A program made the translations under genes and the position numbers. The notes beneath the pieces are model-generated. The model saw only the letters and a list, made by a program, of their open reading frames with translations. It made no database searches and had not been told where the DNA came from. A stretch of 64,000 bases of DNA from a virus, in IMG/VR virus record IMGVR_UViG_3300047557_002951, positions 64,001 through 128,000 of that record. One strand, 5' to 3'. Below, one piece after another: positions 29,607-63,199 of this stretch. How positions within the stretch are numbered: the first letter of the stretch is position 1; every line of letters starts with the position of its first letter.

Positions 29607-29636
29607 TTGCGTTGCTCCTTTACTGCATGTAAATTT

Positions 29637-29686
29637 GCGTTGCTTCTCCCTAAGGATACTTCCGCTGGTGTTTTCCAGTCAACGAT
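29637..29686 (-). ncRNA. Glutamine riboswitch (glnA RNA motif, class I)
   Basis: AUCGUUG-ACUGGAAAACACCAG-CGGAAGUA-UCCUUAGGGA-GAAG-CAACGC: P1 CGUUG/CAACG, P2, P3 with E-loop AGUA/GAA; upstream of a DUF4278 gene. Confidence 0.88.
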
Positions 29687-39187: not shown

Positions 39188-39709
39188 TTATTGGTGCTTT
39201 TGTAGGTATTTAACGGCATTGCTTAATGTGCTGATATTATCACCGACCAATCCTAACATTCTATTACAATTGCTACAAAGTAATCCACGCACCTTTCCAG
39301 TATTATGGTCGTGGTCCACATAAAGATTTTTACTATCTTTTCTACCATTAGTATTTGGATTTAGACAAATAGCGCATACTTCATTCTGCTCTTGTAATAC
39401 ACTTTTATACTGCTCTAAACCAAAGTCTTCTCCATAAGTATATTTTAACATATAGTCTTTCTTATCATCATAAGAAGGTCTCTTATCTTTATAGTCTTTA
39501 CTATAACAATCTTTACACCTTTTATGACCTTTATAATACTCATCAATAAGTTTTTCTACACCACATTTATTGCAGACAATATGAGTTTTACTTGCCCAGT
39601 TTTCAGCATAAGTTTTCTCTTCACACCTCATACACCTTCTACGACCTTCTCTAAAATCAGAGGAGGGAAGTTCTTGTGTGCAGGTTCTACAAATCTTCGT
39701 GGTTCTCAT
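39188..39709 (-). mobile_element. Free-standing endonuclease VII-family homing endonuclease (F-CphI-like) downstream of psbA
   Basis: Two N-terminal CxxC Zn fingers, then Q...CAIC...VDHDH.TGKVRGLLC..CN..LG; TATAAATA late promoter at 39731-38. Confidence 0.85.
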
Positions 39710-39796: not shown

Positions 39797-41828
39797 TTAA
39801 CCGATGGTTGGAGCAGTAAGAGCAACAGGAGTTGTTTCTGCTGATGCCAAATCCAGAGGGAAGTTATGTGCGTTCCTCTCATGGAGCACTTCGAAACCAA
39901 GATTTGCTCGGTTAAGAATGTCTGCCCAAGTGTTAATCACATGACCTTGACTATCAAGAAGTGACTGATTAAAGTTAAAACCGTTACTCTGTTTCCTTAA
40001 ATTTACCATCTTTAAGGAGAGGACTATATCTTCATCCCAGTAGGATGTTGGGCGCTAGTGTCGTATTACATTCCACGCTTGGAAAACCGACTAGTCTCTG
40101 AACCTTTCCAAGAAGCGTCTTGGACTTGGCTGCTGATTACCCATTTATGGAGGGCTTCCAGCAATTCACCCAAAGTTTACCGTCAAATTGCTAGGACGGG
40201 ACCCCGACGATTGAGGTTAAATGCCATCGTAGAAACACCAAGAGCAGCGAACCAGATTCCAACTACAGGCCATGCAGCAAGGAAGAAGTGTAGACTGCGT
40301 GAGTTATTAAAGGAAGCATATTGGAAAATAAGGCGTCCGAAATAACCATGAGCAGCAACGATGTTATAAGTCTCTTCTTCTTGGCCGAACTTGTAACCAT
40401 AATTCTGTGACTCTTGCTCAGTTGTTTCACGAACCAAAGAAGAAGTCACGAGCGATCCATGCATTGCTGATGCGAGAGAACCACCGAAGACACCAGCCAC
40501 ACCAAGCATGTGGAACGGATGCATAAGAATGTTGTGCTCTGCTTGGAATACAAGCATGTAGTTGAAAGTACCAGAGATACCCAGAGGCATCGCATCAGAG
40601 AAAGAACCTTGACCGAAAGGATAGACCAGGAATACAGCAGAAGCAGCAGCAACAGGAGCACTGTAAGCAACGCAGATCCAAGGACGCATACCTAGACGGT
40701 ATGAAAGTTCCCATTCACGACCCATATAAGCATAAATGCCGATAAGGAAGTGGAACACTACAAGTTGGAAAGGACCACCATTATAGAGCCACTCATCTAG
40801 AGAAGCAGCTTCCCAGATGGGGTAAAAGTGCAGTCCAATAGCATTGGACGAAGGAACAACAGCACCAGAGATGATGTTGTTTCCGTACATTAAAGAACCA
40901 GCAACTGGTTCACGAATCCCGTCTCTTATCCCAATAAAACAGTCATATCTTGCGACTTAGACCGTTTCAGTTGACCTATTTGATTTGCTCGTTTTGCGTT
41001 TTCTACTCTTCCACCATTTTCTACCCACTCTTTCCACTCATTAATATAAGAAATACATTCTTTAATTCTTTCACTTCTTCTATTTCCCATATGGGGAAGT
41101 ATTTTTTCCAAAATGAAAAGAACTTTTTCTCTATTTCCTATATGAAGGACATAAACTGGTTTTCCTTTGAGTGTTTTTCTATTAGGTACAAAATAGGGTT
41201 TATCTACAAAATTACTTAGTTTAGCAACCACATCTTCATCAGTCATAACAAGACGAATGTATGGTGCTGGCGGTGCTTTAGAAAAGTCATAACGGTCTTT
41301 AGAACGATTATCTATTCCAAAGTATCCTTCACCTTCTAAAATTCCTGCAATCCAAGTAATTTGTGATTCTGTTAAATCAAGCATTTTGACTTCGCATCTA
41401 CTGTTATATTTATACAGCAAGTGCGAATAAAAGTCAACTGTGAGATTTGGACTATATCTTCACCCTTTAAATTTTTTAAAGGTGCTGGGCACTCTAGCCT
41501 GTTATTAAGGGGACTAAACCCCTCAGGTAGTCTCTGAACCTTCCTCAAGTGTACTTGAGGCTTGGCTGCTGATTGCCTTTCGGTTTCCAGCAATTCACCC
41601 AGTTTTAACATCATCCTTACGGATGAAGGACACAGATTAAAGCAGTATGTCTACGGGAGGTGCTGCAATAAATGCAACAATAAAACAGATAGTTGCCGCA
41701 AGAAGGCAAGGAATCATAAGAACTCCGAACCAACCAACATACAACCTATTATCGGTTGAAGTTACCCAGGAACAGAATTGTTCCCAGAGGTTTTCGCCAG
41801 AACGGCGTGAAGCAATTGAAGCAGTCAT
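39797..41828 (-). CDS. psbA: Photosystem II D1 protein in three exons: 41647-41828, 40214-40924, 39797-39986 (1083 nt, 360 aa)
   Basis: Joining exons restores ...PPVD-I-DGIREP... and ...[12 protein letters not shown]...; ends [23 protein letters not shown]. Confidence 0.97.
39987..40213 (-). mobile_element. Group I intron 2 in psbA (227 nt, no ORF)
   Basis: P/Q/R/S elements AATTGCTGGAAG, AATCAGCAG, GTTCAGAGACTA, AAGATATAGTCC; exon ends in U (ACCU/GGGU P1); intron ends in G. Confidence 0.92.
40925..41646 (-). mobile_element. Group I intron 1 in psbA (722 nt) carrying a homing endonuclease
   Basis: P/Q/R/S elements AATTGCTGGAAA, AATCAGCAG, GTTCAGAGACTA, AAGATATAGTCC; P1 GACAU/GUGUC with U-G at splice site; terminal G at 40925. 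Confidence 0.93.
40926..41384 (-). CDS. Intron-encoded single-motif LAGLIDADG endonuclease
   Basis: [12 protein letters not shown] motif; TATAAATA late promoter at 41407-14 supports ATG at 41384. Confidence 0.85.
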
Positions 41829-41844: not shown

Positions 41845-41953
41845 AGTAAAAAGTCCAGGGGGAACTGGATGGTTACAGTATATCCCACACCACCCTCCAG
41901 TGTGGGTATGAGAGACGGATTTTACTTGCCCATTAGTCTCGGTAGGGCAAGAT
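41845..41953 (-). ncRNA. PhotoRC-II-like structured RNA in psbA leader
   Basis: CUUGCCC..GAGAC..GGGCAAG hairpin with loop GAGAC complementary to downstream GUCUC; CCCACAC..GAGGG..GUGUGGG hairpin; directly 5' of phage psbA. Confidence 0.7.
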
Positions 41954-42026
41954 AAAAAGAAAAGTATTGTATTTTCAATGTTCGGTGATGCAGTTTGTCA
42001 GGAAACCCTGACTTCCCTCACCGACT

Positions 42027-62919: not shown

Positions 62920-62997
62920 TCTGCCATGCACGCCACCAATTCTTTAACTGGAAATTGGAAACCAGGCGGAGAATTAATTCCCCATCCGCACCAGGGC
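62920..62997 (-). ncRNA. wcaG/manA-like cyanophage structured RNA
   Basis: UGGUGCGGAUGGGG..CUCCGCCUGGUUUCCAAUUUCCAGUUAAAGAAUUGGUGGCG; upstream of the sugar-nucleotide genes; family recalled from memory. Confidence 0.6.
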
Positions 62998-63001
62998 AAG
63001 A

Positions 63002-63199
63002 TTATTGTCGTTCCGAGACAAAATTATTGATAATTTCCGATTGCTTAAGAACTTGATCTAGAGTTGGAAACTCTGGAAATTCTGATTTACCAGAATTTTG
63101 ATGTTCCAAATTAGAAATCTCATATTTCATACAGTATTCATCATGTAACATATTATATGCTTGCTTGAAAATTTCAAATCGTAATTCATAAGGTGTCAT
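63002..63199 (-). CDS. Conserved hypothetical protein
   Basis: MTPYELRFEIFKQA...FPT...V...A..IN.FV pattern; AAGGA SD. Confidence 0.7.
   Translation of the reverse strand: MTPYELRFEIFKQAYNMLHDEYCMKYEISNLEHQNSGKSEFPEFPTLDQVLKQSEIINNFVSERQ

Follow-up and report, generated by a model that had tools for sequence, protein, structure and literature searches.

The psbA gene of a lake cyanophage, which encodes the photosystem II protein D1, lies on the minus strand (41828-39797) of the window, the 64,000-nucleotide (nt) stretch at positions 64,001 to 128,000 of IMG/VR record IMGVR_UViG_3300047557_002951 that was analysed here. The gene consists of three exons (182, 711 and 190 nt) separated by two group I introns, and its open reading frames (ORFs) appear as three pieces of D1 with non-D1 sequence between them. 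Its parts, in the direction of reading, are as follows.

41647..41828, minus strand: psbA exon 1, 182 nt, from Met1 to nt 2 of the Ile61 codon (I60 in standard numbering)
40925..41646, minus strand: intron 1, group I, at psbA site 179, 722 nt, Rfam score 86.8 bits, terminal G at 40925
40214..40924, minus strand: psbA exon 2, 711 nt
39987..40213, minus strand: intron 2, group I, ORF-less, at psbA site 890, 227 nt, Rfam score 82.3 bits, terminal G at 39987
39797..39986, minus strand: psbA exon 3, 190 nt, stop codon included

A preliminary description of this DNA, made from its letters, had proposed two psbA introns, at D1 I60 and L297, whose removal would restore a 360-amino-acid (aa) D1. Rfam Intron_gpI matches and a spliced alignment bore out both introns, and joining the exons (41828-41647 + 40924-40214 + 39986-39797) gave 1083 nt that encode a 360-aa D1 plus a stop, with no internal stops. 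The junctions left by intron removal, GACAT|AGACGGG and AACCT|TAACGGT, match the predicted ones letter for letter in the genomic sequence. The borders GACAT|A...AAG|AGACGG and AACCT|C...GAG|TAACGG are the sole in-frame ones that satisfy the rules of a 5' exon ending in U and an intron ending in G, and spliced protein-to-DNA dynamic-programming alignment returned identical borders for both introns; micro-introns that this alignment placed at truncated contig ends (for example in L007, L009, L022, L023 and L088) were spurious and were left out. Intron 1 is inserted after nt 2 of an Ile codon, at nt 179 (residue 61 in the phage, I60 in standard D1 numbering), and intron 2 after nt 2 of a Leu codon, at nt 890 (L297). 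Standard numbering, used for all sites, equals phage D1 numbering minus one and is anchored on residues D59/D61/R64/E65, N298 and H332/E333/H337. The spliced D1 is 85-91% identical to those of S-SRM01 and S-PM2; exon 2 has 84-86% nucleotide identity to psbA of many cyanophages, and its aa identity to relatives reaches 97-98%.

Both introns have the hallmarks of group I ribozymes. Rfam cmscan of the window matched Intron_gpI (RF00028) twice on the minus strand, each time over the full model (positions 1-253 of 253) and well above the gathering score of 50: 41656-41427 (86.8 bits, E 9.5e-21; intron 1) and 40223-39995 (82.3 bits, E 2.1e-19; intron 2). The strands of the P3/P7 pseudoknot are present in the Rfam alignment, and in both introns the U that precedes the 5' splice site forms a U.G pair in P1, and the final base is G. 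Their P, Q, R and S segments, described at first as near-identical, are in fact identical, with 74% identity between the two cores overall. A covarying P7.1/P7.2-type hairpin lies between P7 (GACUA) and the P3 3' strand in both intron families, and because of it we assign both introns to subgroup IA, a placement made at the IA level with IA1 and IA2 undivided.

Comparative data for intron 1 define its secondary structure and its 3' splice site. Exon GACAU (41651-41647) pairs with GUGUC (41633-41629) to form P1, and UCU (41636-41634) pairs with exon AGA to form P10. With the intron 1 ORF as a probe, 31 IMG/VR loci were retrieved, about 25 of which have psbA split at the identical nucleotide, 179, by an intron of 713-784 nt; six more contigs carry ORF-less site-179 introns of 251-269 nt, bringing the site-179 total to about 30 IMG/VR contigs. 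RNAalifold analysis of 22 distinct copies yielded 52 consensus pairs, 16 of them compensatory, and the splice-site U.G pair is kept in all 22. Within this family the Ile codon is ATA or ATC by lineage, and the guide changes with it (AAUCU|GUGUC with exon AGAC versus AAUCG|GUGUC with exon CGAC); this covariation of the third Ile base with the guide (UCU/AGA versus UCG/CGA) fixes the 3' splice site of intron 1. The P9.0 helix, which joins bases just after P7 to those just before the terminal G, occurs as three compensating variants, AUCUCA/UGGGAU (window type), ACAUCUA/UAGAUGU and ACUUCA/UGAAGU (ORF-less forms), and therefore brackets the ORF.

The evidence for intron 2 is of the same kind. In its P1, exon ACCU plus the first intron C pairs with GGGGU (40205-40201), U40214 pairing with G40204. 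A junction-pattern search yielded 47 IMG/VR psbA loci, about 43 of them with a 222-227-nt ORF-less intron at nt 890. Thirty distinct copies gave 57 consensus pairs, of which 18 are compensatory; the splice-site U.G is kept in 30/30, and the P9.0 pair is A.U in 19 and U.A in 11. When 185,579 prokaryotic species genomes were scanned for the junction at site 890, no cyanobacterial genome matched, and the only hit was a single 1.7-kb contig. That contig (L140; RFXU01000325.1, 1680 nt), binned in a Flavobacteriaceae metagenome-assembled genome, is a cyanophage psbA fragment with a site-890 intron and was probably misbinned.

The preliminary description was silent on two nuclease genes, an intact 152-aa endonuclease ORF inside intron 1 and a free-standing gene 3' of psbA. 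The features associated with the first are the following.

41407..41414, minus strand: TATAAATA, a T4-type late-promoter core read from sequence, in an inverted-repeat loop just 5' of the ORF ATG
40926..41384, minus strand: predicted single-motif LAGLIDADG homing endonuclease gene in the P9 region of intron 1, 152 aa, TAA stop ending 1 nt before the terminal G
40928..40933, minus strand: 3' strand UGGGAU of a P9.0-like helix, whose long-range partner AUCUCA is at 41446-41441; the helix encloses the ORF

Coding sequence and ribozyme overlap here, the last ~17 ORF codons also forming the terminal hairpin and P9.0 helix of intron 1. The predicted protein matched PHROG 5046 (E 3.3e-14), some of its metagenomic relatives carry PF14528, and its actinophage relatives have LAGLIDADG annotations. 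Searched against PDB, a profile built from 17 relatives found I-AniI (1.8e-7, the best match), I-OnuI and I-MsoI; the motif IAGxLEGEG is invariant in these relatives (W11, A13, G14, L16, E17, G18, E19, which is acidic, and G20). An AF2 model (pLDDT 87.8) predicts an alpha-beta-beta-alpha-beta-beta-alpha fold, and a Foldseek search with this model gave I-CvuI, I-CreI, I-MsoI and I-CeuI at probability 1.0 and TM 0.54-0.61, the first three on top (E ~1e-5). All four are homodimers with a single motif, from rRNA introns of chlorophyte chloroplasts. On the strength of profile, modelled fold and invariant motif, we assign the predicted product as an I-CreI-like single-motif LAGLIDADG endonuclease. 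The homing endonuclease gene (HEG) is intact and over 60 metagenomic proteins match its product at 53-93% identity, and it is therefore under selection. TATAAATA is conserved in all ORF-bearing site-179 introns and, by likeness to T4 intron endonucleases, probably serves as the late promoter of the intron HEG. An exhaustive profile search returned 16,760 generic LAGLIDADG proteins; P0072, the closest 184-aa match, was considered as a plastid relative of the HEG and rejected, as it is Ala/Arg-rich and does not look plastid-like.

The second gene lies just downstream.

39188..39709, minus strand: free-standing EndoVII-type (F-CphI-like) putative homing endonuclease gene 3' of psbA, Pfam PF02945, E 3.8e-22

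Its product is 42% identical to F-CphI of S-PM2 and about 30 aa longer at the N-terminus. We counted co-occurrence in loci where the psbA 3' end was complete and the flank long enough, defining window-type EndoVII genes as orthologues at least 84% identical. The window-type gene was present in 22/35 loci with a site-890 intron versus 0/18 without (Fisher 3.7e-6), and the F-CphI-type gene in 8/11 loci with a site-1002 intron versus 0/42 without (Fisher 1.9e-7), P values that overstate independence because loci were ascertained through intron or HEG and related contigs were included. The partner sites thus differ, the F-CphI type co-occurring with site 1002 and the window type with site 890. The pairing of F-CphI with the site-1002 intron is proven (PMC6083498), and since the window-type gene occurs only with the site-890 intron, the counts suggest that these two form a second collaborative-homing pair. 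A third EndoVII-type variant (L016:5151-5519, L057:11361-11717), 31-33% identical both to F-CphI and to the window protein, adjoins on the 3' side psbA alleles with introns at 992 and 1011, and may belong to a further intron-nuclease pairing.

Two further elements flank the gene.

41870..41963, minus strand: PhotoRC-II RNA motif in the psbA leader, Rfam RF01717, 73.3 bits
39763..39788, minus strand: intrinsic-terminator-like hairpin and U run directly 3' of the psbA stop (GAGACCC/GGGTCTC stem, then a T run), read from sequence

The PhotoRC-II motif is also found upstream of psbA in related loci.

From the ribozyme identity, borders, covariation, restored reading frame, predicted nuclease folds and co-occurrence observed at this locus, we consider it highly probable (about 0.85) that the window psbA is a three-exon gene with two mobile, self-splicing IA-type group I introns, served by a HEG in intron 1 and an EndoVII partner for intron 2. 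Splicing in vivo, the cleavage specificities and homing are what we infer from sequence, in the following form. Transcription from the psbA promoter, with its PhotoRC-II leader, would produce a precursor RNA with both introns; guanosine would attack after the U of the P1 U.G pair, and the exons would then be ligated after the terminal G, each ribozyme excising itself. Only the doubly spliced mRNA would encode the 360-aa D1, and it would soundly follow, as proposed at the outset, that D1 output depends on two splicing events. Intron 1 would be a complete homing element in which its own late-type promoter drives the LAGLIDADG gene; during co-infection this enzyme most likely cleaves intron-free psbA alleles at the I60 position, whereupon repair would copy intron 1 in. 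Intron 2 most likely spreads with the downstream EndoVII nuclease, as the S-PM2 intron does with F-CphI, at a different site.

Several observations sit uneasily with this proposal, among them the lack of a Pfam match at E<0.01 for the window LAGLIDADG protein taken alone. It is possible, though we think it unlikely, that intron 2 moves alone by reverse splicing, or by recombination during co-infection, and that the EndoVII gene is unrelated to it and has another target. The window-type gene is missing from 13 of the 35 site-890 loci; one locus (L052) has the site-890 intron with an F-CphI-type gene instead, and in L047 and L110 the window-type gene is found together with a site-1002 intron. 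Nevertheless, loci without a site-890 intron never had the window-type gene, a pattern like that of the proven F-CphI pair, and this argues for a collaborative partner.

A more doubtful alternative is that one or both introns are real but splice poorly by themselves, either needing a helper (the LAGLIDADG protein as a maturase, or a host factor) or belonging to a decaying psbA of low D1 output. Intron 1 has a single uncompensated change in the first pair of P8, at the P8 base, where position 41485 (minus strand) gives A.G in the window only and 21 relatives have C.G. P10 of intron 2 is weak in the window version, and organelle LAGLIDADG proteins with maturase activity are known. Set against this, the core helices of the window introns are all intact, the exons are strongly conserved (most clearly exon 2, as above), introns 99% identical to these are present in other contigs, and the small phage IA introns studied so far (S-PM2, T4) self-splice, all of which favours two active ribozymes. 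Assembly error or chimaerism as the source of the split gene, for which we found nothing in favour, is excluded because dozens of independent contigs in IMG/VR, from different samples, have each intron with identical borders.

Group I introns are a known kind of element in phage psbA. Millard 2004 and Zeng 2009 are reportedly the accounts of the S-PM2 psbA intron and of collaborative homing by F-CphI. S-PM2 is among the closest known systems: the psbA of this T4-like cyanophage has a small ORF-less IA-type intron, the core of which shares 78-80% identity with each window intron over 76-154 nt, and an EndoVII-type gene (F-CphI) directly 3' of psbA. The preliminary description had stated that this single, ORF-less intron lies further 3', and it does, following R334 at nt 1002 (R334|N335), unlike the window's two at 179 and 890. 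The S-PM2 intron splices in vivo, and its splicing responds to light (PMC5931967). The cultured freshwater phage S-SRM01 (MW015081, L001:827-3229) provides a precedent for several introns in one phage psbA: its gene has three, an ORF-bearing one at 276 and two others at 750 and 1002, and the spliced gene is complete; its GenBank record annotates only two partial D1 coding sequences. The S-SRM01 paper inferred a single psbA intron and reported both S-SRM01 and S-CBWM1 as cultured cyanophages with an endonuclease-ORF-bearing psbA intron (PMC8557907). These phages share with the window a psbA split by group I introns, with an endonuclease gene in one of them; S-SRM01 differs in its sites (276/750/1002) and in an intron ORF unrelated to the window LAGLIDADG ORF. 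The psbA of S-CRM01 is intron-less and 81% identical to that of the window.

Neither the window introns nor the LAGLIDADG gene had a close relative among cultured phage records, and a literature search, with subscription papers outside its reach, found no phage psbA intron at 179 or 890 and no LAGLIDADG gene in a phage psbA intron. The claim of two further insertion sites was therefore correct in that both differ from the S-PM2 site, but they are new only with respect to described phages, as dozens of IMG/VR contigs carry them. Relative to the readable literature, what is new is sites 179 and 890, a LAGLIDADG-bearing intron at a plastid site, an apparent second intron-nuclease pair and the scale of mosaicism. 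In T4, the td, nrdB and nrdD introns (I-TevI, II and III) express their HEGs from a hairpin-embedded late promoter and home during co-infection. They too are IA-type phage introns in a metabolic gene; their HEGs are of the GIY-YIG and HNH types and lie in P6 or P9.1 loops, in contrast to the LAGLIDADG gene of the window. LAGLIDADG enzymes are typical of organelles and archaea.

Across all fetched loci, 15 phage psbA intron sites were found: 179, 230, 276, 317, 499, 548, 556, 570, 645, 750, 890, 992, 1002, 1008 and 1011. A single psbA in IMGVR_UViG_3300042987_001812 (L057:6800-11300) contains eight group I introns confirmed by Rfam and, at 645, a ninth gap that bears an ORF (sites 179, 317, 499, 556, 570, 645, 890, 992 and 1011), a count of 8-9 that rivals the 10 introns of Oedogonium plastid psbA. 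Alleles are mosaic: L003 and L004 have the window intron 1 and its HEG at 99%, but a site-1002 intron and an F-CphI-type gene in place of site 890, whereas L093, L046 and L094 have intron 2 at 99% without a site-179 intron. The introns therefore assort independently, as expected of homing elements. By these sequence comparisons phage psbA is shown to be an intron hotspot, and every site seems to be paired with an endonuclease of its own. Four of the sites (992, 1002, 1008 and 1011) fall within the 20 nt that specify the Mn-cluster ligands H332, E333 and H337 (L016, L024, L026, L028, L008, L005 and others); in some alleles two of these sites are occupied, which leaves micro-exons of 16-19 nt. 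The P7.1/P7.2 hairpin of window intron 1 (30 nt, 41520-41550; alignment A3 columns 134-170) is identical to that of many site-890 introns elsewhere (for example L047, L058 and L108), and window intron 2 has a different module at this place. Because the hairpin is common to the site-179 window intron and foreign site-890 introns, it suggests that modules have been exchanged between introns of different sites.

The preliminary description had also raised the possibility that the first site coincides with a chlorophyte plastid psbA site, and this proved correct, site 179 being occupied in both Oedogonium cardiacum (PMC2442088) and Ulva (PMC10151680). Oc.psbA.1 of O. cardiacum, of subgroup IA1, has a single-motif LAGLIDADG ORF of 184 codons in L9 (PMC2442088), and the psbA-179 intron of Ulva is 695 nt long, has a single-motif LAGLIDADG ORF and is classed 'derived, B1' (PMC10151680). 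Compared by way of published tables, these plastid introns agree with window intron 1 in insertion point and in the single-motif LAGLIDADG type; the ORF position also matches in Oedogonium, and the Ulva intron, at 695 nt, compares with 722 nt in the window. They differ in residing in a chloroplast rather than a phage, in the length of the Oedogonium ORF (184 codons versus 152) and in the class of the Ulva intron. Six of the 15 phage sites (179, 276, 548, 570, 645 and 750) are nucleotide-identical to plastid sites (14 listed in the tables of three papers, with Chlamydomonas psbA sites outside the comparison), where chance would give about 0.2 (hypergeometric P 7e-9). Site 890 is absent from the compared plastid lists; Oedogonium has a site at 898. 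Part of the overlap between phage and plastid sites could stem from convergent targeting of conserved DNA. A tentative reading, to which we give slightly less than an even chance, is that cyanophage and green-algal chloroplast psbA share one pool of site-specific mobile group I introns, which would imply intron traffic between viruses and plastids; the window gene would then be one mosaic allele in a population with 0 to at least 8 independently assorting introns.

D1 is the photosystem II protein with the fastest turnover, and phage psbA sustains photosynthesis during infection. A psbA allele that needs two ribozyme reactions would have two added points of control or failure. In the psbA hotspot, the way in which homing elements divide up one conserved gene can be studied in a natural setting, exact site sharing makes intron exchange between organelles and phages a testable question, and the LAGLIDADG and EndoVII enzymes are candidate nucleases of new specificity for conserved psbA sequences.

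Elsewhere on the minus strand of the window are a wcaG RNA motif (62922-63023) and a glutamine riboswitch (29634-29686), both of which are known from cyanophages. On another cyanophage contig, a sequence 3' of psbA (L011:5102-5187) gave a marginal Rfam match to tRNA-Sec (49 bits versus a gathering score of 47).

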